Part shown: positions 5,286 through 51,516 of the stretch, in pieces
How positions within the stretch are numbered: the stretch's first letter is position 1
How the letters are laid out: every line of letters starts with the position of its first letter
Source: a virus
Lineage: Duplodnaviria; Caudoviricetes
Reading direction: 5' to 3' (one strand)
Length of the DNA stretch: 58,965 bases
IMG/VR virus record: IMGVR_UViG_3300044654_000030
Location: 1-58,965 of that record
Made by a program: the position numbers and the translations under genes
The notes under the pieces: generated by a model
The model's input: only the letters and a program-made list of their open reading frames with translations
The model's database searches: none
Told to the model about the DNA's origin: nothing

Positions 5286-6956
5286 TCAGAAGACGAGCCA
5301 GGCGCGCTCGCAGTTGGTTCGAGTGGTTGAACATCCCGTTGATGGAACTGCGAGCGCGCCGTCGTCCCCCAAGCCCAAGTCCAGACACAAGTTCAGGTGA
5401 TGGCCGTCCCCCAGGAACCGGGCGTCGAGCCAGTCCAGGATGTGCCGTCGCTGGTCCCACGTCTGGGCAGCCTGGTTCTCCAGCCCGGCACGGACCTGCG
5501 CGGCGTGCCGGGCCAGGGCCTCCGCCTTCGCGTCGATCGCGTCGTAGCCGGCCAGCAGCCCCTGGAGCTGCGCGATGCGGGCCGCGTGGCCGTCGCGCTC
5601 GCGATTCGCCTGGGCGACCTCGCGGAGGATCATGTCGCGCAGCTCGGGGTCGTCCTGCCTGCCGAAGCTCTCCATCATGTTCTGCGCCCGGCGCTCCGCG
5701 TCCTGCTTCGCCCGCTCGGCCGCGGCCAGGCTCTCGCGATGCAGGGCCTCGCCGGGCTTGTCCCGCGTCATCCGGGCGATCTCCTGCTCGATCAGCCCCG
5801 CGGTGGTGAGCACCCGGACGACCTCGGCCCAGGCGACGTCGCGGATCTCGTCGTCGTAGACGGCCCGGACGGGGCAGGCGGGCGTGCCCGGGGTGCGGAG
5901 GTGTCGGTTGCAGCGATAGCAGGGCCGGTACGCGGGCCCGTCGCCGGCGCGACGATCGCGCGTGTAGGAGACCCACATCGGGCCGCGGCAGGCCATGCAG
6001 TAGATCCGCCCCCGCAGGAAGGTGGAGGCGCGGGCGGCGCGGCCGGCGGCGTGCCCGATGCGGGCGTGATGGCGGGCGGACATCGCGGCGACGGCCCGGT
6101 CCCAGGTCGCGGCGTCCACCAGGGCCTCGGTCTTGGCGTCGTGGGCGACGGTCCAGCGCTCCCGGGGCAGCTTGCGGTACTTCTTCCGACCGATCGTCTC
6201 GTACCGGAGGTGGGTGCTGACGCCCTTGTAGACCTCGTCCCGGACGAGGGCGTGGATGATGCCCGTGGTCCAGCGGGCCCGGCGCGACCGCGGCGGCAGG
6301 CCGCGCCGGGCGCCCGGGGTCGGGACCTGGTGCCGGTTCAGCTCATCGGCGATCTCCGTCAGGGTCCAGCCCTGGTTGGCGAGCCAGTCGTAGATCCGGC
6401 GGACCCAGGGGGCGATCCGGGGGTCCGCGACGCGGGTCCGGGTCTTCTTGTCCCAGGTCAGGCCGTACCGCCCGCCGCCTTCGCCGACGAGCTGCCCGGC
6501 GTCGCGGATCTCCTTCTTGACGCGCATCGTCCGTTCCTGGATCAGCTCCCACTCGACCTCATGGGCCCACCCCCGGATGGCGAGCATCACCTTGCCGGTC
6601 GAGTTGTCCTCGATCGGGACCAGGACGCAATGGACCCGGCAACCCCGGCGGCGGAACTCCTCGACGAGGACCTGGAGATCGGTCATGTCGCGCGCCAAGC
6701 GTTCGGTGTTGTGGACGATCACGCCGCCGATGGCCCCGACGCGGGCCAGCTCGCGGATACGCCCCAGCCCGGGGCGGATGTCGGCGGTCTTCATGCCGGA
6801 GAAGCGCTCGAAGACGACGAGATCGGGCGGGATCTCCAGGCCGCGGGCGTCGGCGAACTGGCGGATCGACGCGAGCTGGGTGTGCAGGGAATCGTCGGCG
6901 TCGCCGTGCTCATCCGAGACGCGGCAATAGGCGGCAAAGGGCTTGGTCTGGCTCAT
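5286..6956 (-). CDS. Large serine recombinase (integrase)
   Basis: YCRVS catalytic motif, SG...RPGL, ERLARD; recombinase domain; zinc ribbon (CMAC...YRC...C); coiled coil. Confidence 0.95.
   Translation of the reverse strand: MSQTKPFAAYCRVSDEHGDADDSLHTQLASIRQFADARGLEIPPDLVVFERFSGMKTADIRPGLGRIRELARVGAIGGVIVHNTERLARDMTDLQVLVEEFRRRGCRVHCVLVPIEDNSTGKVMLAIRGWAHEVEWELIQERTMRVKKEIRDAGQLVGEGGGRYGLTWDKKTRTRVADPRIAPWVRRIYDWLANQGWTLTEIADELNRHQVPTPGARRGLPPRSRRARWTTGIIHALVRDEVYKGVSTHLRYETIGRKKYRKLPRERWTVAHDAKTEALVDAATWDRAVAAMSARHHARIGHAAGRAARASTFLRGRIYCMACRGPMWVSYTRDRRAGDGPAYRPCYRCNRHLRTPGTPACPVRAVYDDEIRDVAWAEVVRVLTTAGLIEQEIARMTRDKPGEALHRESLAAAERAKQDAERRAQNMMESFGRQDDPELRDMILREVAQANRERDGHAARIAQLQGLLAGYDAIDAKAEALARHAAQVRAGLENQAAQTWDQRRHILDWLDARFLGDGHHLNLCLDLGLGDDGALAVPSTGCSTTRTNCERAWLVF
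5301..5360. mobile_element. Candidate attP of the serine integrase
   Basis: Perfect 15-bp inverted arms GGCGCGCTCGCAGTT / AACTGCGAGCGCGCC around a 30-bp partly symmetric lower-GC core centred on TG-AA-CA (5330-5331). Confidence 0.7.
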
Positions 6957-15736: not shown

Positions 15737-16173
15737 AGGCCGAGTGTGTAGCGGCAAAAATCGGGGAGGGGAAGATTAGTAACCCGTGCGCGCGATTGGG
15801 GGCCGGAGGGGGTCGCCGCAAGTCCAGGTAGGGCTTTGGGTTACGTTGGACACTACCGGTCGAAGACGTGTCCAGCTTGCCCAGATTACCCAGATTAACG
15901 ACGAATCGCCTCCGCCTAGCGCCCGTCCAGGCATGGACGCCTGCCCACCTATCCGCCTGCATACCTGATCGCCTACCCATCTGATCATCAGCTCACTGCT
16001 CCCAGCACTCTAGGGAACCGCGGGCGCGTGCGCCCGGGCGTGTTCCTCTATGGCACGCGGGACGGCGGGGGAGTGTGGCTTTTTCGCCACGCCAGTCCCG
16101 CACGGTCAGGCGTGGCGTATGATGGGTGTAGAGGCGAGAGAGAGCAACGACAGGCACACCTGAGGAGCGACCG

Positions 16174-16473
16174 ATGGAGTATCCGTACACGCTTTACGAG
16201 ACTTACCACGGTGGCATCGTGGAGCACGGTGGCATCGTGGAGATCGAAAACTTCCCGACGCTCGGGGAGGCGATCGACAACGTGACCGGCTACGGCGGTT
16301 GGTGGGAGGAGGATGAGGAGCGGTCCCGCGGGCAAGTCGGCTGGATTACGGGCCCCGGTGGGCGCGTCGAGGCGACGTTCTTCGAGCGCGGCCCCGGGCG
16401 GGATCTCGTCGTCACGCTGGCGAACGGCGAGACCACCGTCTACCCGATGCCGGTCGAGTACGTGACGGACTGA
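16174..16473 (+). CDS. Acidic early protein
   Basis: RBS GAGGAG; 99 aa. Confidence 0.7.
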   Translation: MEYPYTLYETYHGGIVEHGGIVEIENFPTLGEAIDNVTGYGGWWEEDEERSRGQVGWITGPGGRVEATFFERGPGRDLVVTLANGETTVYPMPVEYVTD

Positions 16474-16478
16474 CCACA

Positions 16479-16530
16479 TCCCGGTTGTGTGTGTCGAAAA
16501 TTCGCAACGCGACGACACACACAACCGGGA
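16479..16530. repeat. 18-bp perfect inverted repeat
   Basis: TCCCGGTTGTGTGTGTCG-16 bp-CGACACACACAACCGGGA. Confidence 0.85.
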
Positions 16531-16581
16531 GTGACGTAGAGTCGAGTGACGGGCAAGCGACACACACCTGAGGAGCGAGCG

Positions 16582-16851
16582 ATGTACGCCATCGGCACGG
16601 TTGACGCCTACGGGCACGCCATCCCCTGCACGCGCATCGGTTGCCTGGAAACTTGGCGCTTCGGCAAGCGCCAGATCGAGTTGAGCGGGACGCCGGAGCG
16701 CGGTTTTCGGGTCCGAACCTGGCATCAGGTCTGGCCCGACATGCCGGCCTCACTGGAGTTCGACGAGACCACACCTTGGCGCCGGGAAGCGCTGGCGTGG
16801 GTCCGCGCCGAGCTGAAGTTGGCGGTCCGGCTGGCGAACCGGGGCGAGTGA
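16582..16851 (+). CDS. Early hypothetical protein
   Basis: RBS GAGGAG; MYAIGTVDAYG. Confidence 0.65.
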   Translation: MYAIGTVDAYGHAIPCTRIGCLETWRFGKRQIELSGTPERGFRVRTWHQVWPDMPASLEFDETTPWRREALAWVRAELKLAVRLANRGE

Positions 16852-16944
16852 TGCTTTTTCGCCACGCGACGACACGCACGACAGAGAACGACGTATATTC
16901 GGGTGACGGGAACGAGAGGCACGCATCCGAAGGGAGAGAGCGAG

Positions 16945-25814: not shown

Positions 25815-25859
25815 TATTTGTCAACATGCCGTGACAAGCCTGTTGCGTTTTGGTAACAT
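25805..25859. promoter_or_regulatory. Paired inverted repeats overlapping the recombinase promoter
   Basis: GGCATGTTGA-TATTTG-TCAACATGCC, then TGTTGC-GTTTTG-GTAACA; GTGACA-17 bp-TAACAT. Confidence 0.55.
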
Positions 25860-25915
25860 ATGAGGAGGAACCGATCTCATTTCCTGCGGACGCCCCGCGG
25901 GGCGGCGGAGGGCCG

Positions 25916-26677
25916 ATGCCGGACAGGACACCAGTGACGTACGCCTATATCCGCATGTCGAAGGCGAGCCAGGTGGGCTCGCCGGACGACCAGCGGGACA
26001 CGATCGGCCGCACGGCGGCGGCCGACGGCCGCTCGGTGGACATCTGGATCACCGACGCGGCGATCAGCGGCAAGGTCCCCCTCCTGAAGCGGGAGGGGGG
26101 CCGCGAGCTCGACGCCCGGCTCAAGAAAGGGGACCACGTCTACATCGCCCGGCTCGACCGGATGTTCCGCCGGGCGAGCGACTGCGCGCTGATCATCGAC
26201 CGCTGGCAGCGGATCGGCGTCCACCTCCATGTGTGCAACCTCATGGGGATGGGCATCGACCTCAGCTCGGCGGTCGGCCGGTTCATCGCGCTGATCCTGG
26301 CGGCGGTGGCCGAGCTGGAGCGGGAGTTCATCGCCGAGCGGACCCGCGACAGCCTGGCCCGCCGCCGCCGCACGGGCGGCGCGTGCGGCCGGTACGCCGG
26401 CTACGGGTGGAAGTGGCGCAAGCTGTGGGACCCCGAGAAGGGTCGCCACGTCAAGACCAAGGTGCGCAACGAGGAGGAGCGCGCCATCATGAGGGAGATC
26501 GTCAAGTGGCGGGCCGAGGGCCACAGCTTCGACGAGATCTCCCAGCATCTCACGTACACCCTGAAGGTGTTGACGTGGGAGGGCAAGGAATGGACGCTGA
26601 AACGGTGCCAGCGGGCCTACGTGGCGGAGCTGAAGTTGCAGCTCGCCGAGGCCCGCCGGGGCGACCACGAGGCATAA
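25916..26677 (+). CDS. Small serine recombinase (resolvase/invertase family)
   Basis: YAYIRMS, ISG....R, KGD.....RLDRMFR, AELEREFIAERTR; short recombinase-type DNA-binding tail. Confidence 0.9.
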   Translation: MPDRTPVTYAYIRMSKASQVGSPDDQRDTIGRTAAADGRSVDIWITDAAISGKVPLLKREGGRELDARLKKGDHVYIARLDRMFRRASDCALIIDRWQRIGVHLHVCNLMGMGIDLSSAVGRFIALILAAVAELEREFIAERTRDSLARRRRTGGACGRYAGYGWKWRKLWDPEKGRHVKTKVRNEEERAIMREIVKWRAEGHSFDEISQHLTYTLKVLTWEGKEWTLKRCQRAYVAELKLQLAEARRGDHEA

Positions 26678-38651: not shown

Positions 38652-39710
38652 TCAGCCTCCGGGCAGGTTGTAGCCCCGGGGGCCCGGCCCGATCCGGACG
38701 CCGCCCTGGGGCTGGAAGCCGCGCGGGGCCTGGAGGAGCTGCGGCTGGGGCTCGCCCGCGAACGCCTCGCGAATCCGGTCGTAGCCCCGGGCCATCGTGT
38801 CGGCGTACGCGGTCGGGCTGGTGACGAGCGTCCCCAGCGCGTTCAGGGTGTTCCGGGCCGCCGCCGCCGGCCCCGCCACCTGGGGCGACACCACGGCGCT
38901 CGCCAGGTCGCCCCAGCCCTCGCCGGACGCGAGCCGGCCCAGGCCGGCGTTGAACGTGTTGTGGTGGCCGGTGTCGTACCCCAGCGCCCCGGCGACGGCG
39001 TCGTACGGCGACCGCAGGAAGTCCGTCGAGGCGGGGCCCAGGGCATCGACGGCCCCGCCGATCGTCTCCATCGGGTGGCTCGCGAACCGGAGGGCCCCCT
39101 CGGGGTCGGCCGCCGCGGCGGTCGCCAGGTTCAGCCCGACCCGGCCCGCCATCCCGCCGGGGGTCCGCAGCAGCCCGCGCCCGGGCGCGGCGGCCGGCTC
39201 GCGGCCGGCGACGAGCCCGGGGCGCACGGCCGGCTCCGGGAAGCCGAGCCGGGACGCCCCCGAACGGATCGGGCCGCGGGCGGGGGCGGGGGGGCGCGCC
39301 GGGGAGGCCGGGCCCGTCCCGGCGGGGTACACGGGATGGGCCGGGTCGAGCGGCCGCAAGGGGGCGGCGACCGGCCCCGGGGGGGTCGGACGCCGGATGG
39401 GATAGGCCCCGAACGGCATCTGCGCGATCCGCTCGTCGGCGAGGTGATCCACCAGGCCCTCGTAGCCCGTGCGCGGCAGGGGCCGCACCGGGAACATCCG
39501 CTCGCCCAGTCGGGCGCCCGCCTTCTGGATCGTCTCGCCGAGGAGGGTGTCGTCGCCGCCGCGGCGGCCGATCGTCCCCGGGCCGGCGGACAGGGCCGGG
39601 GAGAGGCGGCGGAGCACCCCGCCGGCGCGCCGGAGCATCCCGCCGCCGGGGCCGCCCGCGGCGGGGGCGGGCGGGTTCGCCGCCTGGGAATCGGGCTGGT
39701 CAAGAGGCAT
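38652..39710 (-). CDS. Putative internal virion protein
   Basis: 352 aa, Gly/Ala/Pro-rich; synteny. Confidence 0.55.
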   Translation of the reverse strand: MPLDQPDSQAANPPAPAAGGPGGGMLRRAGGVLRRLSPALSAGPGTIGRRGGDDTLLGETIQKAGARLGERMFPVRPLPRTGYEGLVDHLADERIAQMPFGAYPIRRPTPPGPVAAPLRPLDPAHPVYPAGTGPASPARPPAPARGPIRSGASRLGFPEPAVRPGLVAGREPAAAPGRGLLRTPGGMAGRVGLNLATAAAADPEGALRFASHPMETIGGAVDALGPASTDFLRSPYDAVAGALGYDTGHHNTFNAGLGRLASGEGWGDLASAVVSPQVAGPAAAARNTLNALGTLVTSPTAYADTMARGYDRIREAFAGEPQPQLLQAPRGFQPQGGVRIGPGPRGYNLPGG

Positions 39711-39720
39711 CGGCCGACCC

Positions 39721-41418
39721 TCAGAGGAGCCCGCCGATCATGGTCGCGACCGCCTGGAGGACGCCGACCTGGCGGGTGATGTTGTTGCGGTCGTCGTCCA
39801 GGAGCACCTGCTCCTGCTCGTGGAACTGCTGGGACAGCGCCTGCTGGCCGCGGAAGGTCGCATCGACGTTCGCCTGGGCCGCCTGGAGGCGGACCTGGCT
39901 GGCGGCCTCGAACGACGCGCGGAGCTGGCTGCCGACCAGGCCGGCCTGGAGCGCCAGGGCCAGCGGGCTGGCGGCGCCGAAGCCGCGGCCGGCCAGGTCC
40001 CCCTGGAGCTGGCGGATCGCCGCCTGGGTGCGGGCGTCGTTGCGGGCGTAGATCGCGTTGACCTGCTGCTGGAGCTGCGCCGGCGTGAACACCCCCCGGG
40101 CCGAGATGTACGGGGCGTTGACCCGCGCGAGCTGCGTCACCGACCCGCCCCCGCCCACCCCGCCGCCGTTGGGCGGGTCGAGCGGGCCCATCCGCAGCGG
40201 CGAGCGGGGGGCGTGAGCCCCCTGGCCGGCGACGCCACCCGGGGCGTCGGGCAGGAACCGGGACCGCGCGGGCGGGGCCGACACCCGGCCGTAGAAGCCG
40301 ACCTGGTCGCCGCCGGTGTCGCCGCCGGATGCCGACATCCGCACGACAGGGGGCTGACGCCCCCCGCTCGCATCGGCGGCCTGGGCGCGGAAGCCGAGGC
40401 CGCCGCCGGAGCCGGCGCCGCCGGTCAGGAAGGTGTCGGCGGCGCCCACGGCCTGCGTCACCAGCGGGAAGATCGCGTTGAACTTGTCGTTCGCGAACCC
40501 GAGCTTGAGGTTCAACCGGGCCGTCTCGGACTGCTCGTGGAGCTGGGCGGCGGCGTACTGGCGGTCGGCGGCGTAGGTCTGGGCGCCCGCCTCGGTGGTG
40601 GCGACCGTCGTCCGAGCGGCATACTCCTGGTCGGCGGCGTGGAAGGCCGAGTCCTTGGAGCGGTCGGCGCCGTAGTTCCGGGCGGCGGCGTCGATCGTGG
40701 CGACCGCCTGCTGGGCCGTGGAGTTGATGGTCGCCACGGTCGAGGCGGAGTTGGCCCCGATGGTGGCGACGTCGCGCTGGGCCTGGGCGCCGGTCGTGGC
40801 GACCGAGACCTCGGCGTTGGCCTGGATGGTGGCGACGTCCTTGCGGCTGCCGGCGTCGAGGGTGGCGACGTCGCGCTGGGCCTGGGCGCCGGTGGCGGCG
40901 ACGTTCTGGCTGGCGGTCGCGGAGGTCTCGGCGGCGGAGATCGTCGCCCCGGCCTGCGCCTGGGCGGCGCCGAGGTGGGCGTTCGCCTCGGTGGCGGCGA
41001 TCGACGTGTCGAACCCGCCCCGGGCGTTGAGCTGCGCCAGCTCGGCCGCGTTGCGGTCGGTGGCGATCCCCTTCTGGGTGTCGGCCTCGTAGAGGGAGGC
41101 GATCCGCTGCTGGTCGGCCGCGTACCGCCGCCACCCGTCCTCGATCAGCGCCAGCGCCTGGTCGGTCTGGTACTTGAGGGGGTTGATCGACTGGAATTCG
41201 AGGATGTGGCCTTGCGCCTCGATCGCGGGCAGGGCGAGTCGGGTCTCCGCCTCGATCTCCGCGACCGCGATCGCCGCCTCCTTGTTGCGGTCGGCGCCGT
41301 ACTTCTGGGCCAGCGCCTCCTCGTGGGCCGCCACGTAGGCCGCCTGGATGCGCGCGGCGGCGTCCTGCTGCGCCAGCGCCAGCGCCGATTCGAGGTTCGC
41401 CAGGCCGATGTCGGACAT
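39721..41418 (-). CDS. Ala/Thr/Gln-rich helical virion protein (ejection/pilot-like)
   Basis: 11-residue periodicity; TGAQAQRDVAT repeated. Confidence 0.6.
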   Translation of the reverse strand: MSDIGLANLESALALAQQDAAARIQAAYVAAHEEALAQKYGADRNKEAAIAVAEIEAETRLALPAIEAQGHILEFQSINPLKYQTDQALALIEDGWRRYAADQQRIASLYEADTQKGIATDRNAAELAQLNARGGFDTSIAATEANAHLGAAQAQAGATISAAETSATASQNVAATGAQAQRDVATLDAGSRKDVATIQANAEVSVATTGAQAQRDVATIGANSASTVATINSTAQQAVATIDAAARNYGADRSKDSAFHAADQEYAARTTVATTEAGAQTYAADRQYAAAQLHEQSETARLNLKLGFANDKFNAIFPLVTQAVGAADTFLTGGAGSGGGLGFRAQAADASGGRQPPVVRMSASGGDTGGDQVGFYGRVSAPPARSRFLPDAPGGVAGQGAHAPRSPLRMGPLDPPNGGGVGGGGSVTQLARVNAPYISARGVFTPAQLQQQVNAIYARNDARTQAAIRQLQGDLAGRGFGAASPLALALQAGLVGSQLRASFEAASQVRLQAAQANVDATFRGQQALSQQFHEQEQVLLDDDRNNITRQVGVLQAVATMIGGLL

Positions 41419-41443
41419 GCGGTCGCCCCCCGGGGTGCCCCTC

Positions 41444-41465
41444 CCCCGGGGTAACTACCCCGGGG
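41444..41465. repeat. Intergenic palindrome
   Basis: CCCCGGGGTA-AC-TACCCCGGGG. Confidence 0.7.
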
Positions 41466-41468
41466 CGG

Positions 41469-43028
41469 TCACGAGGGGCTCTGGTCCTTGAAGTACGCCT
41501 TCACGTACTTCACGATCGCGTCGGCGGTCAGCAGCGACGAGCAGTCCCCCTTGTACTGCACGTACTGGGGGAGGTTGATGTCCTTGACCATCGCCCGGAA
41601 GAGCTGCCGGGTGCCGGGCTCGATCCCGGCGTAATACTTCTGGACCTGGCCGATGATCGGCGGGGCCTGGACGCCGACGGCGTCCAGGAACTCGTCGTGC
41701 GGCGGGTCGAGGACCCGCTTGGCCGCGAACCCGTCGGTGGGGTCGTCGCCGGGGTACGGGTAGTAGAAGAGGTCCGGCCCCCCGAACGTCGCGTTCATGT
41801 AGGCATAACTGTACGGGAAGATGAACTGGAAGCTGTGCAGGCTGGCCCGGTCGGCGTTGATCGCCCCGGCGTCGAAGTCGGGCGGCGTGATGTCGGGGAA
41901 GGTGAAGATGTGCGTGACGAGGTTGCGGTACTTGGCGGCGTTCTGGGCGTAGGAGGACGCCTGGACCCGGCAGATGGCGTCGTACCCCTGGTCGTGGTAC
42001 AGGTTGTCGCCGGAGCCGTCGGGCCCGAAGCCGAGGTCGGCCATCAGCCCCGGCGGGCGCCACTCTCGCCGCTGGCCGTCGAAGGCCGGCAGGTCGGCGC
42101 GGAGGTAGGTCCCCAGGAACACGTCCCCGTACGCCTGCCCCTCGGGCACCATCGGCCACCCCGTGTAGCTGTACAGGTCGGCGCCGGGGTCGGTCCGCCA
42201 GGCGAAGTGGCCGATGTACAGGTGCAGGACGTTGCAGCCGAAGTGCGGCGGCCCCGACAGCAGGCAGGGCACCCCGCCGAAGTGGAAGTCGAGCTGGTTG
42301 CCGGTGTCGAGGGGGACGGGGAAGCTGGAGTCGATCGGCCCGAAGTCCGTGTAGAAGACCCCCTCGTCGCCGGTGTGGTTCTTGGGATTCTGCGGGACGT
42401 TGTTCGGGTTGTGGTCGATCAGGTGCGGGAACGACGGGACGGTCCGCCACTGGAAGTCGGCGGCCCGCGGCACCCAGTGCGGCACGACGCAGAAGACCGG
42501 GTCGGGGCCGGACTCCAGGGTCTTCTTGGCCTGGTCGAAGGCTTGGCCGAGCTGCTGGACCCAGTTCCACCAGGGGTTGACCCACCGGCACACGATGCGG
42601 CGGTAGCGGATGTTGGGGTTGACCAGGCCGAGGTCGGGGTCCTCGTTGTACTGGAGCATGTGCCAGTAGTGCGTCGGCCCCCGGGTGCCCACCCCGATGT
42701 TGATCCCGATCGTGTCGTAGGGGAAGATCCAGACGCCCTGCTTCCAGAGCAGGGTCCAGTTCGCCAGGACGGAGAGGATGACGACCTTCGGGACCCGCAG
42801 CAGCGAGTCGGCCTTGAGCCAGTCCTGGGGGTAGTCCTTCATCACGCCCAGGTCGTAATTCTGGAGGACGTCCAGGCTCTGGGCCGAGCCGAACATCGTG
42901 TGCCCCTTGGTCTTCGCGGAAGGCCGGTCGCTCCAGAGGAACTGCGACCGGCGCATGCTGCGCGTGCCGTCGCCGTCGTTCTGGAGGATGCCCTGGGCGA
43001 CGTTCCGCTGGGCCGGGGGTGGGCTCAT
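41469..43028 (-). CDS. Hypothetical virion-associated protein
   Basis: 519 aa, aromatic/Asp-rich, in tail module. Confidence 0.7.
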   Translation of the reverse strand: MSPPPAQRNVAQGILQNDGDGTRSMRRSQFLWSDRPSAKTKGHTMFGSAQSLDVLQNYDLGVMKDYPQDWLKADSLLRVPKVVILSVLANWTLLWKQGVWIFPYDTIGINIGVGTRGPTHYWHMLQYNEDPDLGLVNPNIRYRRIVCRWVNPWWNWVQQLGQAFDQAKKTLESGPDPVFCVVPHWVPRAADFQWRTVPSFPHLIDHNPNNVPQNPKNHTGDEGVFYTDFGPIDSSFPVPLDTGNQLDFHFGGVPCLLSGPPHFGCNVLHLYIGHFAWRTDPGADLYSYTGWPMVPEGQAYGDVFLGTYLRADLPAFDGQRREWRPPGLMADLGFGPDGSGDNLYHDQGYDAICRVQASSYAQNAAKYRNLVTHIFTFPDITPPDFDAGAINADRASLHSFQFIFPYSYAYMNATFGGPDLFYYPYPGDDPTDGFAAKRVLDPPHDEFLDAVGVQAPPIIGQVQKYYAGIEPGTRQLFRAMVKDINLPQYVQYKGDCSSLLTADAIVKYVKAYFKDQSPS

Positions 43029-43041
43029 TTGACGGCCATTT

Positions 43042-44037
43042 TCACTTGATCCAGACCGGCGGCTGGGCGTAGTAGGTGCCGTCGGTGCCGAGCCGGGCGA
43101 TCGGGAAGAGCCAGGTGTCCTGGGGGATCTCGTCGTCCTTGCTGATCTGGAGGATGACCACCTCCACGTCGTCGCCGCGATCCCCCTGGGGGCCGTCGGG
43201 GTAGAGCGTCACCTTGTAAGTGTCCCCGTTCCGGTACTTCCCCCCCATGTCGGCGGTGAACTTGGAGACGACCTTGCCGGCCAGGACGCCGGCGCCGCCG
43301 TCGCCGGGGTTGTCCACGTCGAGCGTGGGCCAGTCGGCCCGCGTCCCCTTCAGCGGCACGTACCGCTTCGCCTTCGGGTTCCAGACCTCGGGCGGGTGCT
43401 CGAACCGCACCGGGGCGGCCCGGAACGACGCCGGCCCGTCCACCTCGAAGATCGGCCCGGACCCGGCCGGGGCGGGGGCGGGCGTGCGGGCGGAGGCGGA
43501 CTGGACCCGGCGCCCGGCCGGCGCCGGGCGGGCATCGGCCGGGGCGGGCGTCGGCCCCGGGGGCGGCGCCGGGACGTCCCGCCGCTCGGACGCCTCCGGG
43601 AACGCGAACGCCCCCGCGGGGATCTCGTAGGTCCCCTCGGGCTGGGCGAAGAGGCCCTCGGGCGTCGCGAACGTGCCCGGGGGCGCCAGGAGCGTCCCCT
43701 CCGGGATGTTGAACGTCCCCTCCGGCAGGGCGAAGGTCCCCTCGGGGGTGGAGAACGTCCCCTCGGGGAGGGCGAAGGAGCCCGGGCGCATCGCGAAGGT
43801 GCCCTCGGGCAGGGTGGTCTTCACCAGGGCGGGCGGCGGCGGCGCGGGGGCCTCCCGGCGCCCGGCCCGCTCGATCCGCAGCCCGACCTGGCCCTCGGGC
43901 ACGCGGATCGTGACCGGGCCGTCGTGCTCGGCGGGCCGCGGGGTGCGGTCCGCGAGCATGGCGTACAGCTCGCGGACGAAGCCCCGCCAGTCCTGGAACG
44001 GCGCCAGCAGGCGTTGGGGATTGCGGATGCCGAACAT
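43042..44037 (-). CDS. Tail-associated protein with heptapeptide (xPEGTFx) repeats
   Basis: Likely start MFGIRNPQ at 44037; about 10 repeats. Confidence 0.7.
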   Translation of the reverse strand: MFGIRNPQRLLAPFQDWRGFVRELYAMLADRTPRPAEHDGPVTIRVPEGQVGLRIERAGRREAPAPPPPALVKTTLPEGTFAMRPGSFALPEGTFSTPEGTFALPEGTFNIPEGTLLAPPGTFATPEGLFAQPEGTYEIPAGAFAFPEASERRDVPAPPPGPTPAPADARPAPAGRRVQSASARTPAPAPAGSGPIFEVDGPASFRAAPVRFEHPPEVWNPKAKRYVPLKGTRADWPTLDVDNPGDGGAGVLAGKVVSKFTADMGGKYRNGDTYKVTLYPDGPQGDRGDDVEVVILQISKDDEIPQDTWLFPIARLGTDGTYYAQPPVWIK

Positions 44038-44069
44038 GACCGACAGGGGGCTCACGCCCCCCGCTCGCT

Positions 44070-44810
44070 TCAGCCGAGCACCAGGTAATTCCACTTGTAG
44101 GTCGTGGTGGCGGTCAGGGCGGCCGACCCCGACGTCACCGTGAAGGCGGTCGTCGAGATGCCGGCGGCGCCGGCGAAGACCTGCGTCGTGCCCGTGAGGG
44201 CCGCCGCGTTCGCCTCGGCCGGGGTCAAGAGCACCGTCTTGGGGGCGGCGGCCCGCGCGGCGCTGAAAGTCACGGTCACGATCGTGGCGCCGGTCGCCGG
44301 GCTGGCCCCCGCCGTCACGGTGATGACGCCGTTGGTGTCGGTGCCGCTGATCGAGACCGTCGGGCTGGTGCCGGCGCCGGCCCCGGCGGCGATCGTCGGC
44401 GTCGTGTTGCCGGTGAACGGCCGGCCCAGGCTGTCGAGGCCGAACAGGACGGCGGCGGACGAGTTCTGGGCCTCCAGCAGGTCGGCCGTCTGGCCGGCGG
44501 CCGCCGTGACGACCAGCCCCTTGTGGGCCGCGGCGTCGATCGTGATCGTCTGGGGCGCGACCGTGAAGGTGTTCGCCACGCCCAGGCCGGGGTACGTGGC
44601 GACCAGGCTGGGGATGTCGGCGGCGACCAGGGCCCGGAACGTCGGCGCCGCGGCGCCGCCGGAGGTCGGGCCGGCGTAGACCTGGTTGGCCGACTGGGTC
44701 GCCTGGGCCAGGCCGGCGCCGGCGGCGATCTGGGTGGCGATGTCCTGGGCGGCGGGGGCGCTCGCCAGGGCGGTCGTCAGGATCTGCTGGGTGTTGTACG
44801 AGATGCTCAT
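44070..44810 (-). CDS. Ala/Thr/Gly-rich tail fibre/spike-like protein
   Basis: ANQVYAGPTSGGAAAPTFRALVAADIP and GTDTNGVITVT motifs typical of phage fibre proteins; RBS GAGGA. Confidence 0.7.
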   Translation of the reverse strand: MSISYNTQQILTTALASAPAAQDIATQIAAGAGLAQATQSANQVYAGPTSGGAAAPTFRALVAADIPSLVATYPGLGVANTFTVAPQTITIDAAAHKGLVVTAAAGQTADLLEAQNSSAAVLFGLDSLGRPFTGNTTPTIAAGAGAGTSPTVSISGTDTNGVITVTAGASPATGATIVTVTFSAARAAAPKTVLLTPAEANAAALTGTTQVFAGAAGISTTAFTVTSGSAALTATTTYKWNYLVLG

Positions 44811-44856
44811 GGGTGCGTCCTCAAGCGAGCGGGGGGCGTGAGCCCCCTGTCGGTCG

Positions 44857-47187
44857 TCAGGGCGACTCCGCCCCGGAGATGGTGATCTGGTGGATGCGGA
44901 CCGGGGCGCCGGCCGCGACGCCGGAGAGCTGCACGCGCACGAAGCGGTCGGGGTGGGCGTACGGGTCGGCGTGCCCGGCGAGCCGCTGCACGGCGTACCC
45001 CTTGGGGGTGTCCAGGTCGAAGGTGATGTCCGGGCTGCCGGCCCGGGTGACGACCTGGTCGCTGGCGCGGTCCAGCGCCCAGGTGCGGGCGGCCGGCTCG
45101 TGGTCGAAGCCGAGCTGCAAGTCCACCAGGGTCGGGACGGCCGTCGGGGTGTAGACCAGCGCGACGTCCCGGGCGTTGTCGCGCTCGTCGGGGACCAGCT
45201 CGTGCCAGCCGCCGGCCCAGGTCCAGGGGATGCCGCCGACGCGGTAGGCGCTGGTGGCGTCGGGGATGGTGTCCCAGGGGCGGACGACCTCGATCCGGGT
45301 CGCCGAGTTGCCGGCGACGCGGCGGAGCTGGCCCGCGCCCGTGCCGGCGACGATGGCGATCGGCGCCCCTTCGAGGTCGTCGAAGCTCGCCGTCGCGTCG
45401 GTCAGGCTGATCGCGTCGGCGGCGGTGGCGGACCCGGCGGTGGTGCCGGCGCCGGAGATGCCGTCGTAGGTCCCCTCCCCCAGGCAGACGACGCGGCGGG
45501 CGACCGTCCCGGCCAGGCTGCGGCGGGCGCCGGCGAGCGGGGGGCATGAGCCCCCCGTCGGCACGGTGGCGGCCGCCGAGGCGGTCATCGCCGCCGGATA
45601 GGCTTCCACCCACCACCGCCCGGAGCGGTAGTCGAGGCCGATGGCGTGCCGCGGCACCCCGCCGTCGCCGACGAACGCCACGAACCACCGGATCGTGTCC
45701 CGCAGCGGGTCGGCCGCCGCGTGCCAGGTGCGTTGGTCGGCGGCCCAGTCCACCCGCAGGGGGCCCTCGCCGTCGGGCAGGAAGAGGTCCTGGATCGGCG
45801 TGGACGCCGCCTCCGACCCCTCCCCGTCGAACTTCCAGATCCCCGCCTCGTCGAGGAGGTAGACGTCGCCGTCGGCCCGCGCCCAGCACCGGGCGTTGAG
45901 GCAGCCGCGGTGGGCGACCAGGAACACGAAGCCGTCGCGGCCCGGGTCCTCCTCGTACGCCAGGTAGTAGACGTGCCGCCGCTGGAGGACGTACAGGAAC
46001 TGCCCCCGGACCATCAGGCCGGTCACGTCGTCGTCGTCCTCGGGCAGGGCGACGGCGTTGGTGATCGGCCAGGCGTCCGGCAGCGCCGGCTCGGAGTAGT
46101 ACAGGAGCTTGCGCTGGCCCGGGGCCGGGCGGATCGCGTAGGCGGCGTAGGGGGCCGGCCGCTCGAAGTACGGGGTCGCCAGGGTCAGGACCTGGTTGAC
46201 CGGGTCCACCGCGGCGATCGGGTACGCCTGGGTGGCCCCGGCGACGTAGAGCCACCGGCCGGCCAGGCTCGCCGGCCACGCGGTGCCGACCCCGGCCATC
46301 GTCGCCTGGTTGAACCGCGGCAGGACGTGGCCGTCGGCGTAGGTGGCCTCCCCGGCGGCGAAGGCGCGGCCCTTGTGGCAGGCGACGACGGCGCGGTGGC
46401 TGGGGGGCACGCCGTAGCGGGCGGCGTACGGCAGCTCGGCGTCGCCGTAGGTCCAGGGGACCGCCTCCTGCTGCGCCAGCGTCTCGTCGTCGAGGGTGCT
46501 GGTGAAGGTCGTGCTCGCCAGGTCGGTCGTGTCGATGTCCACGTACCAGACCGACGCATCCCCGCCGAGGTTGCGCAGGACCTGGCGGCGGACGACCTTC
46601 GCCTCGACGGGGGTCGGGACGTTCGCGTAGGCGATCGCCGCGACGCCCAGGGTCCACGCGCCGCCCTGGTTGTACCGGCCGCTGGTGATCCGGAGGCCGT
46701 TGATCGTGAAGGTGTCGCCGTCGGCCACGGTGATCGTCCAGGAGCCGTTGGCGAGCACCAGGCCCTCGACGCCCTCGATCGTGACCACCTGGCCGGTCGC
46801 CAGGCCGTGGGCGGCGGAGTGGACGGCGACGACGCCGGACGACGTGTCGTACGAGACGTCGTCGATCCAGCCGTCGCGGCCCAGGTCCACGGCGGCGGCG
46901 ATCGGGCTCGGGGAGGACGGGTTGCCGTCGGCGTCGAGGAACCGGACCCACGCGGCGTACTGGCCCGAGAGCAGGCCGACGCCGACGCCGGCCAGGGTCG
47001 GGGCGGACCCCGGCGGCTGGACGCCGACGGTGGTGGCGGCCGGCCGGGGCGGGGTCCACTTGAGCATCGGGTCGATGCCGTTGGCGGCCAGGACGACCCC
47101 CTCGGGGGTCTCGGCGAAGCTCAGGGGGAAGGAGCCGGAGATCCCCGCCGCGAGGATCGCCTGGAGGCCGGCGCCGGGCTCGGTCAT
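44857..47187 (-). CDS. Tail nozzle/stabilisation-like beta-propeller protein with E1-FCCH-like insert
   Basis: HGLATGQVVTIEGV...NGSWTITV.DGDTFT; LYYSEP..PDAWP; GCLNARC. Confidence 0.6.
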   Translation of the reverse strand: MTEPGAGLQAILAAGISGSFPLSFAETPEGVVLAANGIDPMLKWTPPRPAATTVGVQPPGSAPTLAGVGVGLLSGQYAAWVRFLDADGNPSSPSPIAAAVDLGRDGWIDDVSYDTSSGVVAVHSAAHGLATGQVVTIEGVEGLVLANGSWTITVADGDTFTINGLRITSGRYNQGGAWTLGVAAIAYANVPTPVEAKVVRRQVLRNLGGDASVWYVDIDTTDLASTTFTSTLDDETLAQQEAVPWTYGDAELPYAARYGVPPSHRAVVACHKGRAFAAGEATYADGHVLPRFNQATMAGVGTAWPASLAGRWLYVAGATQAYPIAAVDPVNQVLTLATPYFERPAPYAAYAIRPAPGQRKLLYYSEPALPDAWPITNAVALPEDDDDVTGLMVRGQFLYVLQRRHVYYLAYEEDPGRDGFVFLVAHRGCLNARCWARADGDVYLLDEAGIWKFDGEGSEAASTPIQDLFLPDGEGPLRVDWAADQRTWHAAADPLRDTIRWFVAFVGDGGVPRHAIGLDYRSGRWWVEAYPAAMTASAAATVPTGGSCPPLAGARRSLAGTVARRVVCLGEGTYDGISGAGTTAGSATAADAISLTDATASFDDLEGAPIAIVAGTGAGQLRRVAGNSATRIEVVRPWDTIPDATSAYRVGGIPWTWAGGWHELVPDERDNARDVALVYTPTAVPTLVDLQLGFDHEPAARTWALDRASDQVVTRAGSPDITFDLDTPKGYAVQRLAGHADPYAHPDRFVRVQLSGVAAGAPVRIHQITISGAESP

Positions 47188-47196
47188 CGGGACCTC

Positions 47197-48234
47197 CTAG
47201 TGGGGCAGGCCGCCGCCGGGCGGGAGGAGTGCGGGGGCGCGCCGCCAGGGGAGGACGACCACCCCGTCGGCGCGGTCGATGAAGGCCAGGGCGCCGGACG
47301 CCGCGCCCCGGGCGCCGCGGCCGGGCAGCGCCCGCGCGGCCAGGGCCAGCCGGCTGGCGGCCGCCGGCCGGAGCATCTGGTTCGACTTGGCGGCCGGGGA
47401 CAGGACGATCGCCGACGCCGCGGCGACGCTGGCCGCCCGGGACGCGGTCGCGGCCGGGCCGAGCGCCACGCGGGACGCGGCGGCGGCCAGGCCGGCGCGG
47501 ACCTGGCCCGCCGCCGGGCCCAGCTTGATCGCATTGGCGGCGGCCAGGGGGTAGGCGCGGGCGACCCACGCCGAGGCGGTCGCGTGGACCCCCAGGCCGC
47601 TGGCCGACCCGTCGCGATCGACCCGCGTCGGGTTCGCCACGCACCACGAGCCGGCCAGCGCCAGGCGGCTGGCGGCGGCCGGGCGCCAGAACCGGGGGGC
47701 GGGCACGCACGTCGCCCCCAGGCTCAGGCGGGTCGTCGCGGACGCCGGCCGGCCGTGGGGGAAGACGTAGGCGTCGCACAGGACCGCGAACGTCAAGTCG
47801 GGCGGGAGCCCCGACGACGCCGGCTCGGCCGAGAGGTAGATCTTGGAATTGTAGGCGTCGTCGGCCGCCCAATAGTACAGGTGGTTGGCGGCCGCGACGG
47901 TGAAGGTGTGGACCGGGTTGCCGTTGTCCCAGACGTTGAAGACGACCGTGTTGGCGGCGTGCGGGAAGATCCAGCGGACCTGGCCGGCGGCCGGGCCCAG
48001 CCGGACCCCGGAGGCCGCCGTCACGTACGCCCCCTTGAACGTGCCCGCGACCGGGGCGAGGAGGATGCCCGAGCTCGCCGCCAGGGCGACGGCCGAGTCC
48101 TGGTGCATCGCCTGCGGGGCGAGGACCACCCCCGACGACGACCCGACGATCCAGGCGGTGGCGCCCCGGGCGTCGCCGAGGATCAGGCCGCCGAGCTGGG
48201 CCGTCGCGCCGCCGAGGACCGCGGTGTTGGACAT
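47197..48234 (-). CDS. Ala-rich repeat tail protein
   Basis: Repeated AASxxxLxP.A units. Confidence 0.6.
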   Translation of the reverse strand: MSNTAVLGGATAQLGGLILGDARGATAWIVGSSSGVVLAPQAMHQDSAVALAASSGILLAPVAGTFKGAYVTAASGVRLGPAAGQVRWIFPHAANTVVFNVWDNGNPVHTFTVAAANHLYYWAADDAYNSKIYLSAEPASSGLPPDLTFAVLCDAYVFPHGRPASATTRLSLGATCVPAPRFWRPAAASRLALAGSWCVANPTRVDRDGSASGLGVHATASAWVARAYPLAAANAIKLGPAAGQVRAGLAAAASRVALGPAATASRAASVAAASAIVLSPAAKSNQMLRPAAASRLALAARALPGRGARGAASGALAFIDRADGVVVLPWRRAPALLPPGGGLPH

Positions 48235-50007: not shown

Positions 50008-51516
50008 TCAGATTCGGGGGTTGCGGCCGCGGACCAGGAGGCCGCCGGTGAGCTGCGCCAGGATGTACCGCGCCTCGGGCCGCTCGACGGCGTGCAGCGC
50101 CGTCACGGCGCCGCCGGGGTCGCCCCCGGGGACCACGTCGAACCGCGCCGTGGCGCCGCCGGGCACCCCGGCGGTCGCGTACGCGAACGTCACCCGGTAA
50201 CTACCCCCCAGGACGCCGACGCCCAGCGGGAGCCGGAGCAACCACCGGGTCCCGTCGGAGCCGGGGGCCAGCGGCACGAGGGGCGTCTGGCCCGACAGGA
50301 CGCTGCCGGCCGGGCCGGCGATCCCCGCCGTCGGGGTGGCGTCGGGCGGCGTCGGCAGGTTGCCGGGCCCGAACGTCGTCAGGGGGATCGCGACCACGTC
50401 GCCGAGCTGATACCGCCCCAGGGCGTCGCCGCCGCCGGAGGGGGCCAGGACGAACCCCGACGCCGCCGCCGCGACCGCGGCGCGGACCTCGCGCGCCGCC
50501 GGCCGGAGGGCCAGGCGCGACGCCGCCCCCACGGCCCGCGGGCCGGGGAGCCACCCCGACGCCGGCAGGACGAACGCGCTGGCGGCCGACGCGACGGCCC
50601 ACCGATGCTCGGAGCCGGCCTGGGACAGGACCAGCCCCGAGGCCGCGGTCGGGAAGCCCCACCGGACCTCGGCCCCGGCCGGGGACAGGACGACGCCGGA
50701 CGAGGCGGCCGGGAAGATCCACCGGACCGCGGAGTCGGCCTGGGAGAGGACGACCCCGGAGGCGGCCGACACGGGGTAGGCGTGCGTCTGGGACGACAGG
50801 AAGACCCGCGGCGCCGGGGGCCGGACGACGCCGTACGGCTCGACCTGGAGCCGGGCCAGCTCGGCGGCCGAGAGGGCGCGGCCCCAGGCCGCCACCCAGG
50901 CGACCTGGCCGCCGGCCAGCAGGTAGTGCCCGAACCCGTACGACCCGCCGATCCAGAGGTGGGCCGAGGCGCTGGGGATCGCCCCCGTGAGGCCCCCCGT
51001 CGCCTGGCTGACGCCGTCGAGCCAGAGGGTCAGGGTCGCCCCGTCGTAGGTCCCGGCGATCGTGTGCCAGGTGTTGGCGGCCGGCGTGCCCGACATCTGC
51101 GCCAGGACGGAGCCGCCGGAGAAGTCGAGGTTGCCGTTGCCGTTGATCCGCAGCGCCCAGCCGAAGGGGGAGCTGCCGGCCTCCTTGGAGACGATGGACT
51201 GGCCGGCGGCGGTGCCGGCGAAGCTCACCCGCGCGGCGACCGTCAGGGCGGTCGCGTTGAACGCCGGGTCGGCCCCGCAATCGAGCGCGCCGGCGCCGCC
51301 GAAGGTCAGGACGCCCCCCTCGGGCGACCCGCCCCACGTCGGCCCGGTCCCGGTCGGGGTGCCGTGGTGGCCGCCGGCCAGGTCGGCGGCCAGCGGCCCG
51401 GACCCCTCGACCAGGGGCCAGTAGCCGAGCAGGCCGGCGGCCAGCGGGTGCGTCGGGTCGAGCCGGGCCCCGGCGGGCGGCTTCGCCCGCCAGCGGGCCT
51501 TGGAGGAGACGATCAC
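50008..51516 (-). CDS. LamG/ConA-like domain tail protein with Ala-rich repeats
   Basis: LLGYWPLVEGSG, WHTIAGTYDGATLTLWLDG, WGRALSAAE. Confidence 0.75.
   Translation of the reverse strand: MIVSSKARWRAKPPAGARLDPTHPLAAGLLGYWPLVEGSGPLAADLAGGHHGTPTGTGPTWGGSPEGGVLTFGGAGALDCGADPAFNATALTVAARVSFAGTAAGQSIVSKEAGSSPFGWALRINGNGNLDFSGGSVLAQMSGTPAANTWHTIAGTYDGATLTLWLDGVSQATGGLTGAIPSASAHLWIGGSYGFGHYLLAGGQVAWVAAWGRALSAAELARLQVEPYGVVRPPAPRVFLSSQTHAYPVSAASGVVLSQADSAVRWIFPAASSGVVLSPAGAEVRWGFPTAASGLVLSQAGSEHRWAVASAASAFVLPASGWLPGPRAVGAASRLALRPAAREVRAAVAAAASGFVLAPSGGGDALGRYQLGDVVAIPLTTFGPGNLPTPPDATPTAGIAGPAGSVLSGQTPLVPLAPGSDGTRWLLRLPLGVGVLGGSYRVTFAYATAGVPGGATARFDVVPGGDPGGAVTALHAVERPEARYILAQLTGGLLVRGRNPRI

Follow-up and report, generated by a model that had tools for sequence, protein, structure and literature searches.

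The question posed by this locus is why a single gene in the tail region of a bacteriophage should be packaged exactly between the two arms of a perfect inverted repeat. The window, by which is meant the whole 58,965-nt stretch of DNA that was analysed, is the complete IMG/VR virus record IMGVR_UViG_3300044654_000030 (Duplodnaviria; Caudoviricetes), which has a GC content of 73% and is estimated to be 88% complete. The gene encodes a 246-aa tail-fibre-like protein and a first-pass annotation suggested that it might sit in an invertible ON/OFF cassette, in a captured cassette mediated by repetitive extragenic palindromic (REP) elements, or within a long-range mRNA duplex. Analysis of the repeat, of bacterial genomes and of related phage loci indicates that the arms are copies of a REP-type element, the unit of which is a 30-nt imperfect-palindrome hairpin belonging to a host family, and that the packaging of the gene between them is in all likelihood a by-product of REP biology and not a programmed invertible switch. 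The host of the phage is presumably a planctomycete.

The repeat and the gene that it encloses

Codon-position GC places the minus-strand structural genes of the phage in one unbroken run from about 32 to 59 kb, and the 246-aa gene is found here (44070..44810, minus strand) as a 741-nt open reading frame (ORF), taken from the ORF list and its translation. The 33-nt string GACCGACAGGGGGCTCACGCCCCCCGCTCGCTT has exactly two occurrences in the window, both with 0 mismatches, one on the plus strand (44038-44070) and the other on the minus strand (44823-44855), which bears out the perfect 33-bp inverted repeat originally described; 0 of 100 shuffles gave any match, and a repeat search of the window extended the pair to 36 nt at 97%. 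The arm downstream of the gene (44038..44070) is in the forward (F) orientation on the minus, or sense, strand, and when read on that strand it consists of a 5' foot AGCGAGCG, a stem GGGGGC/GCCCCC, a loop GTGA and a tail TGTCGGTC. It occupies the whole of the 32-nt gap between the stop codon of the 246-aa gene and the next ATG (44037-44035), which directly abuts it, and shares one base with the TGA of the 246-aa gene (44070-44072); there is no separate ribosome-binding site (RBS) in this gap ahead of the 331-aa gene that follows (43042..44037, minus strand), the product of which has an N-terminal MFG... domain. The arm upstream of the gene (44823..44855) is F on the plus strand, which is the reverse (R) orientation on the sense strand. 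It begins 1 nt past the stop codon (44857-44859) of a 776-aa conserved structural gene (44857..47187, minus strand) and makes up 33 of the 46 nt between that stop codon and the ATG at 44810, the rest including the GAGGA RBS of the 246-aa gene (44818..44822, minus strand), which follows the arm inside the repeat-bounded block, with the ATG 7 nt later. The 819 nt that separate the 776-aa and 331-aa genes consist, to within one base per side, of arm, RBS, gene and arm. The sequence as read and the ORF coordinates agree with the earlier statements that the arms enclose only the RBS, the 246-aa gene and its stop codon, and that they make up all of one intergenic gap and most of the other. No target-site duplication was found outside the arms, the sense-strand flanks (...CCCTGAC and ATGTTCG...) sharing no direct repeat. 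A miniature inverted-repeat transposable element, or a composite transposon with terminal inverted repeats, would be expected to have such a duplication.

The host repeat family

The two arms are not the only copies of the repeat unit in the phage. A 28-nt core (GCGAGCGGGGGGCGTGAGCCCCCTGTCG) was found at five sites at <=3 mismatches, against 0 expected in the window, the core start sites being 40200 (+), 40344 (-), 44041 (-), 44825 (+) and 45533 (+), all within 40.2-45.6 kb. When as many as 8 mismatches of 30 were allowed there were again exactly five copies, none of them degenerate, in comparison with 0-2 such matches in shuffled sequence. The five phage copies are recent. Their 30-nt hairpin unit can be written as GGCGAGCG-GGGGGC-GTNA-GCCCCC-YGTCGG; the foot is GCGA in all five, the phage-type tail is YGTCG, with the end of the unit reading ...CCCCCTGTCGG, and the tail after the stem is CGTC in one of the five (45533) and TGTC in three others, a GTAG tag being absent. 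Each copy folds into a 4-nt loop on an 8-bp GC stem, which in the phage copies is lengthened to 11 bp, a single G being bulged out. Sites for tyrosine recombinases need a 6-8-bp spacer, for which the 4-nt loop is too short, and this candidate was dropped.

Two of the five copies are extragenic, these being the arms, and three are intragenic; GC content at third codon positions (GC3) stays at 0.94-0.99 across the latter, and their reading frames differ. As the copies are translated in different frames, the conserved thing is DNA or RNA and not a peptide. The third copy (45532..45561, plus strand) is a 30-nt in-frame insertion in the 776-aa gene, translated as PTGGSCPPLA, an exact 10-residue insertion that is absent from 11 of 13 aligned homologues. 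Three of these 11 (P0034, P0035 and P0038) have one residue at the edge of the gap and, of the two remaining homologues, P0029 has an unrelated insert and P0039 a gap that is one column off. An insertion of exactly 10 residues implies that the unit is 30 nt and that it entered without a break in the frame. The other two intragenic copies lie in a 565-aa conserved structural gene (39721..41418, minus strand). The translation of the fourth copy (40343..40372, minus strand) is ASGGRQPPVV, which stands in a variable linker in place of the same number of native residues, a near-invariant GF becoming VV, and that of the fifth (40199..40228, plus strand) is GQGAHAPRS, which lies within a 12-column insertion in comparison with homologues. 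The 116 nt between them encode a VRMS...D.QVGFYGR segment that is present in all 11 aligned homologues and, since native conserved coding sequence separates the two copies, they are two separate singletons and not one inserted doublet. It would appear that all three intragenic copies are tolerated in frame inside the two tail-region genes. The Ala/Gln-rich N-terminal half of the 565-aa gene also has a repeat of 99-nt period (40687-41000), the number of units varying among homologues.

A degenerate form of the motif (GAGCGGGGGGCNTNAGCCCCCYG) was scanned exactly against IMG/VR and the GTDB species genomes. It was found in 20 IMG/VR stretches from 17 contigs and in at least 120 stretches in the GTDB genomes and, among the matches listed, 80 of 80 GTDB record titles were Planctomycetota, with Gemmataceae, Fimbriiglobus, Zavarzinella, Pirellulaceae, Planctomycetaceae and Isosphaeraceae all represented in the titles. 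Counts at <=2 mismatches in five genomes were 58 (Gemmata algarum), 194, 237, 15 and 143 copies per genome, and a reversed control gave 0. The first-pass annotation had itself allowed that the motif might simply be an abundant host REP and, with 15-237 copies in five host genomes, this is largely what was found. A consensus drawn from 198 copies reads GGCGAGCG-GGGGGC-GTNA-GCCCCC-YG.T and its outer edge is sharp, the host tail being YGNT. Stem variants altered on both sides (GGAGGGC/GCCCTC, GCGGGGC/GCCCGC and GGCGGGC/GCCCGC) were read from the count list, which is not a formal covariation test. Of the pairs less than 400 nt apart 46 of 56 were convergent, with start-to-start distances of 30-73 nt. 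The copies in Gemmata algarum fill intergenic gaps and lie 1-18 nt from the ends of ORFs, and a crude classifier based on GC3 assigned 155 of 168 host copies to non-coding sequence; it misses one known intragenic phage copy and is rated as conservative. The nearest resemblance to the phage tail was seen in copies from an Isosphaeraceae metagenome-assembled genome (MAG), which end in ...CCCCCTGTC. On one Isosphaeraceae MAG contig in GTDB (L183, 4465-4776) eight copies with the tail CCCCCTGTC are arranged head-to-tail with a 39-bp period, and this tandem array has inverted copies on both sides. The presence of a near-identical 21-nt core in records titled as four planctomycete families, and yet in only 6 of 301 genomes drawn evenly from the phylum, is an odd distribution for a vertically inherited REP. 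An Rfam search over 39000-47000, with E up to 1, gave only a single chance-level match.

A Pfam Y1_Tnp search was made in four of the repeat-bearing genomes. It gave 18 matches, two weak ones of which lie exactly between clusters of the motif. On contig C3 of genome G005 a 199-aa ORF (P0002) with the HUH motif NHFH scored 25.2 bits against a cut-off of 23 and is flanked by three copies of the motif on one side and two on the other, and on contig C99 of G. algarum a homologous, frameshifted gene with NHVH scored 22.6 bits and is flanked by four and three copies. The motif flanked 0 of 10 loci fetched for the stronger, canonical Y1_Tnp matches. The putative host transposase fits a divergent Y1/HUH, "IS200-like" enzyme that is class-3-like, the comparison being with the published description of that class. 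The Y1-like ORFs (L177, 1383-1982; L157, 1961-2588) continue into the flanking REPs, their last 20-30 residues being translated repeat. No Y1 transposase gene was found in the phage among the 20 proteins scanned against Pfam. The unit has been filed as REP-type because it occurs in many chromosomal copies, is mostly extragenic, forms convergent doublets and flanks a Y1 transposase in two genomes.

Origin of the block and alternative explanations

Neither the 331-aa nor the 776-aa protein gave a match when it was scanned singly against IMG/VR or in a first metagenome scan; alignment-based scans with the 776-aa family worked, and yielded 42 metagenome and 36 IMG/VR loci (78), of which at least 8 are the same contig in both collections. 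The 57 loci of at least 9 kb were scanned and the 21 shorter ones left out. The gene order portal ... 776 ... 565 ... 1205 is common to all 57, and 0 of the 57 had either a REP copy at <=3 mismatches of 21 or a homologue of the 246-aa protein. In 25 of 66 loci the MFG domain of the 331-aa gene could be detected behind the 776-aa homologue, some of these 25 being the same contig filed in two collections. Of the 25 loci, 14 have a predicted gap of -7 to +13 nt between the two genes, seven one of 32-127 nt and four one of 249-349 nt. No flanking repeats were found in the four relatives with gaps of 249-349 nt, only a local 16-bp hairpin in one of them (L197). The stop and start overlap as TAATG in the nearest relative (L230, 53% identity in the 776-aa protein). 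Because the neighbours abut in 14 of the 25 informative loci, and none of the 57 has the gene or a copy of the repeat, the 819-bp REP-gene-REP block would appear to be a lineage-specific, moron-like insertion. In another relative (L247, 10277-10615) the same junction is occupied by a 112-aa gene (MKLIIAGGRNY...) unlike that of the window, its stop and start codons overlapping those of the neighbours. The 776/331 junction seems to take insertions repeatedly. The annotation had held that an absence of swaps in relatives would count against its proposals; what was seen was presence or absence of the gene at the exact boundaries, together with the different gene of L247. A scan of 43500-45700 gave 0 promoters and 0 intrinsic-terminator-like sites, the promoter scan covering the sigma-70-like type only.

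The description of the product of the enclosed gene as tail-fibre-like is moderately supported, in that the fold matches phage proteins named tail fibre, but the 246-aa protein has no Pfam match and no PHROG match. When searched against BFVD, the model of its C-terminal beta-rich domain (predicted local distance difference test, pLDDT, 70-94) gave matches to phage proteins (E 1.3e-10), some of them named tail fibre (E 4.8e-4), and a fold search of the PDB with the same model gave nothing at E 0.001 or better. Residues 35-91 carry a motif common to 12 phage loci, and the C-terminal 170 residues (77-246) are 76% identical to a gene in two contigs in which the neighbours are unrelated and the repeat is absent. 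The protein would appear, then, to be a mosaic of a widespread phage motif (35-91) and a beta-rich C-terminal domain (77-246). There was no full-length close relative among 94 matches and no paralogue in the window by tblastn, and a genome scan found no donor locus for the gene, only one distant match in a Saccharimonadia MAG. Searches of Pfam and PHROGs with ten tail-region proteins gave almost no matches. The neighbouring 776-aa protein has a match at residues 117-179 to Pfam E1_FCCH (32.1 bits, cut-off 29.5), a small beta domain of ubiquitin-activating enzymes, and several of its homologues carry the same precomputed match.

In the proposed sequence of events the REP family would multiply in host intergenic gaps, mostly as convergent doublets, and its copies could have come to flank the 246-aa gene in one of two ways. 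The first is capture, in which the gene would have been taken up on a fragment with one end in the middle of a REP doublet and the other in the middle of the doublet that follows. Of 12 cases of host REP neighbours 300-3000 nt apart, 9 are in the order R...F, as follows from the placing of genes between convergent doublets (F R - gene - F R), and capture from doublet centre to doublet centre would give R-gene-F with the tails of the repeat outermost, as is observed. Capture would also explain both why there are copies at the two junctions of one gene and why the arms are each other's closest relatives. The REP-mediated captured cassette of the first-pass annotation is partly supported by the presence or absence of the gene exactly at the boundaries in relatives and by the host-type R-gene-F order, but no donor locus was found, and the chance that the arms were captured together with the gene is put at not far short of even. 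The second way is later colonisation, in which REP singletons would have landed, after the arrival of the gene, in two new and permissive junctions, these new junctions probably being the most permissive sites for them. The three other phage copies, as their sequence stands, prove that singletons do land in the phage, which supports later colonisation. Nor is identity over 33 nt rare within one family, 13 of 496 pairs showing it in G. algarum, the unit of which has a tail specific to that species. The chance that the arms arose by later colonisation is put at rather below even. A giant REPIN (a REP doublet forming a hairpin) was dropped as a candidate, the arms facing the wrong way with their feet inward. 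A wider proposal is that REP doublets are break-and-join points at which Planctomycetota phages pick up accessory tail genes, the phages in turn spreading the REP family. This must be considered doubtful; if it were true, phage-borne spread would explain why the 21-nt core is present in Gemmataceae, Pirellulaceae, Planctomycetaceae and Isosphaeraceae and yet in only 6 of 301 genomes.

Placed immediately behind one cistron and immediately ahead of the following start codon, each arm would probably fold, in the late tail transcript, into a stable GC hairpin that could buffer mRNA decay or couple translation. A hairpin or helix formed by an arm could stabilise the upstream message, or could tie initiation at the 331-aa gene to the completion of the 246-aa ORF by ribosomes, and effects of REPs on RNA elsewhere are among the subjects of Di Nocera et al. 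(2013, PMC3733652). With arms that are identical over 33 bp, the block is also open to rare events of homologous recombination, by which the gene would be inverted or lost.

A number of observations weigh against regarding the block as a by-product of REP biology. The family is patchy, with any copy at all in 6 of 301 genomes drawn evenly from the phylum and at least 10 copies in 2 of the 301; stretches with the phage-type tail YGTCG are few in GTDB (seven in number), and among the genomes searched there none was found to be rich in the exact phage subfamily. Only 2 of 5 homologues of P0002 that were examined are flanked by the motif, and one of the two flanked transposases, that of G. algarum, is frameshifted and falls below the Pfam cut-off. 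In the 776-aa protein the identity to the nearest phage relatives is no more than about 53%, and the order of events at the junction is reconstructed across that long distance. The copy at 40343 is not a clean insertion, being an equal-length replacement, and is weak evidence for an indel. The two arms are identical over 33 nt, share a non-consensus A at position -8 and, in comparison with the three remaining phage copies, have differences at 2-4 of 30 positions, and it could be that this extra identity reflects selection for pairing and not common descent. The phage encodes a small serine recombinase, which is a candidate invertase, and the Logan contigs (k=31) listed stop short of both arms and carry no information on inversion.

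The alternative that survives best, improbable as it is judged to be, is that the long-range duplex is functional. The arms would pair in the late polycistronic transcript to form a 33-36-bp helix that loops out the 246-aa cistron and acts as a substrate for an RNase III-type enzyme or as a ribosome block; the helix would set the amount of the 246-aa protein in relation to its neighbours, and translation of the 331-aa gene would be dependent on the 246-aa protein. Both the minimum free energy and the centroid folds of an 891-nt sense RNA pair the arms over about 36 bp (z -4.94 in comparison with 20 shuffles), the identity of the arms exceeds the 30-nt unit, and the downstream ATG directly abuts its arm in a gap that has no RBS of its own. 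Such a fold, however, follows from any perfect inverted repeat and is not independent evidence, and copies of the host repeat are often identical to each other. Local hairpins form first in transcription, and each arm folds alone at -21 to -25 kcal/mol (-25 kcal/mol in 51 nt for the arm at 44038 and -21.1 kcal/mol for that at 44823). Ribosomes traverse the 741-nt ORF that lies between the arms, and such arms were present in 0 of the 57 relatives scanned. Whilst the duplex raised in the first-pass annotation is indeed predicted by folding, its use in the cell is unsupported.

Assembly artefact has also to be considered, in that the 246-aa gene might derive from a co-occurring genome and have been joined to the phage through the shared 33-bp repeat. 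Eight runs contain the stretch, all as Logan contigs and none of them listed as RNA, and four runs of one sample were compared over 39000-47500. Stopping short of the arms as they do, none of the contigs listed bridges them, and the repeat is common in the soil sample, the bin with the pair 40136-40419 having a depth of 52-124 in comparison with about 7-34 for its neighbours. Against such a chimera, the gene fits its surroundings in module, kind, strand, RBS and stop/start spacing, the depth of the X1 contig 44198-44336, inside the gene, is 18.6 as against 16.8 and 17.2 for the flanks (a weak point, with one figure per contig), and a 33-bp repeat is shorter than the largest k of the usual metagenome assemblers, so that a chimera is highly improbable. 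Joints in the same data that skip 121 or 122 nt at 40224/40346 have sides of 18-26 letters and are read as REP doublets of other organisms. No strand-changing joints were seen among the 15 of 83 contig joints listed, which is uninformative on inversion.

The programmed ON/OFF inversion, in which a small serine recombinase would recombine the arms and flip the gene with its RBS out of the late operon, is unsupported and is rated the least probable explanation of all: the perfect repeats do surround one receptor-binding-type gene, each arm does have internal dyad symmetry and the second serine recombinase noted at 25916 is real (25850..26677, plus strand; Resolvase domain, Pfam Resolvase 96.7 bits), but the arms belong to a host repeat of 15-237 copies in five genomes that is tied there to a Y1 transposase, three further phage copies lie in essential-looking genes that recombination among copies would break, the recombinase gene is 18 kb from the block and no link between it and the repeat was found, the flipped state has no alternative gene (the sole plus-strand ORF in the segment, 44104..44679, shares third codon positions with the minus-strand gene and is a shadow ORF) and the arrangement was found in 0 of 57 related phage loci.

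Several other features of the window may be recorded. At 16128-16941 there are three copies of a 49-82-nt repeat (GTAGAG...CACCTGAGGAGCGA..ATG), each ending at the start codon of a small plus-strand gene, and these look like a repeated promoter/leader unit of the early region. A 60-nt period is present inside a 502-aa gene at 50569-50773. A class II (B12-type) ribonucleotide reductase is encoded at 121-2418 and a large serine recombinase (Resolvase, Recombinase and zinc ribbon), presumably the phage integrase, at 5286-6956.

Significance and comparison with known systems

What had the appearance of a tempting phase-variable receptor-binding gene would seem to be a false lead, and its place is taken by a documented case of host selfish hairpin DNA colonising a phage. 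A practical consequence is that, in high-GC planctomycete phages, perfect inverted repeats around genes should first be checked against the repeat families of the host, and the repeat is at the same time a clue to the host of an otherwise unassigned virus. The patchy distribution of a near-identical core across families hints at horizontal carriage, and phage-carried copies of a family that is patchy within its phylum make the horizontal spread of REPs testable.

The invertible segments of phages Mu (G/Gin), P1 (C/Cin) and p15B (Min) resemble the block in having inverted repeats of about 26-34 bp at host-range genes and a phage-encoded serine recombinase. These segments provide alternative fibre ends for both orientations, with the invertase gene adjoining, and have sites that are private to the system, whereas none of these features is found here. 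The morons of lambdoid phages are similar in that an additional gene has come to separate two genes which adjoin each other in relatives, and in that a further relative, in this case L247, has a different gene at the same junction. Classical lambdoid morons, of the kind associated with Juhala and Hendrix, bring their own promoter and terminator; here neither was found in the interval scanned, and the block is bounded by inverted REP copies. The promoter early stem-loop (PeSL) cassettes of T4-type phages also have repeated stem-loops that bound single accessory genes in plastic regions, and these stem-loops may, according to work attributed to Arbiol, Comeau and Krisch, promote the shuffling of accessory genes. 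They differ in being phage elements, consisting of a promoter plus a stem-loop in direct orientation, whereas the repeats described here are inverted and belong to a host chromosomal family. Units of the Rickettsia palindromic elements, on which Ogata and colleagues reportedly published in 2000, are said to be inserted in frame in otherwise conserved proteins and translated there as short additional loops.

In-frame REPs inside genes have already been described by Di Nocera et al. (2013, PMC3733652), in whose account palindromic units are inserted in frame and translated as short loops, as they are here. The present case is unlike those in that the targets are phage tail-region genes, the insertion is a single 30-nt hairpin (10 aa) and three of five copies are intragenic. 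The comparison may be extended to the REP systems of Proteobacteria, including bacterial interspersed mosaic elements (BIMEs) and REPINs, with their REP-associated tyrosine transposases (RAYTs, or TnpA_REP), as outlined by Bertels and Rainey (2011, PMC3116915) and Di Nocera et al. (2013, PMC3733652). The points of likeness are a short imperfect palindrome in tens to hundreds of copies, a mostly extragenic position near the ends of ORFs, inverted doublets, a flanked Y1 transposase gene and occasional in-frame intragenic copies. The points of difference are that the foot here is GGCGAGCG with no GTAG tag, that the family is patchy within one phylum with a near-identical core, that the arms in the phage are singletons in divergent order and not doublets, and that copies ride on a phage genome. 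By the terminal tetranucleotides that define the GTAG- and CGTC-tagged REP superfamilies in the account of Di Nocera et al. (2013), the phage/host unit falls outside both. In a later report RAYTs are said not to occur on horizontally mobile elements, and the inheritance of REPINs is described as vertical (Bertels and Rainey, bioRxiv 10.1101/2021.07.10.451892).

The class 3 TnpA_Y1 proteins, the genes of which have high-copy hairpins at their flanks, offer a further comparison; in the account of Quentin et al. (2018, PMC6006769) they are found for the most part in Planctomycetes, Acidobacteria and Proteobacteria. The host system is like them, as they are outlined in that paper, in its taxon, in having a protein of about 180-200 aa with an NH[VF]H HUH motif, and in that several hairpins, of a kind also dispersed in high copy, lie on either side of the gene. 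The foot given for the class is CnGA, which the foot of G005 (C[CT]GA) fits, that of Gemmata and the phage being GCGA. Both REPs in the Planctomycetes-Verrucomicrobia-Chlamydiae (PVC) group and class-3 transposases in Planctomycetes are already in print, and a literature search of limited reach found no published report of REPs carried by phage genomes. The mildly new element is the setting of this otherwise familiar kind of repeat: a phage, in which it bounds an acquired tail gene and in which three further copies are translated within two genes of the tail region.

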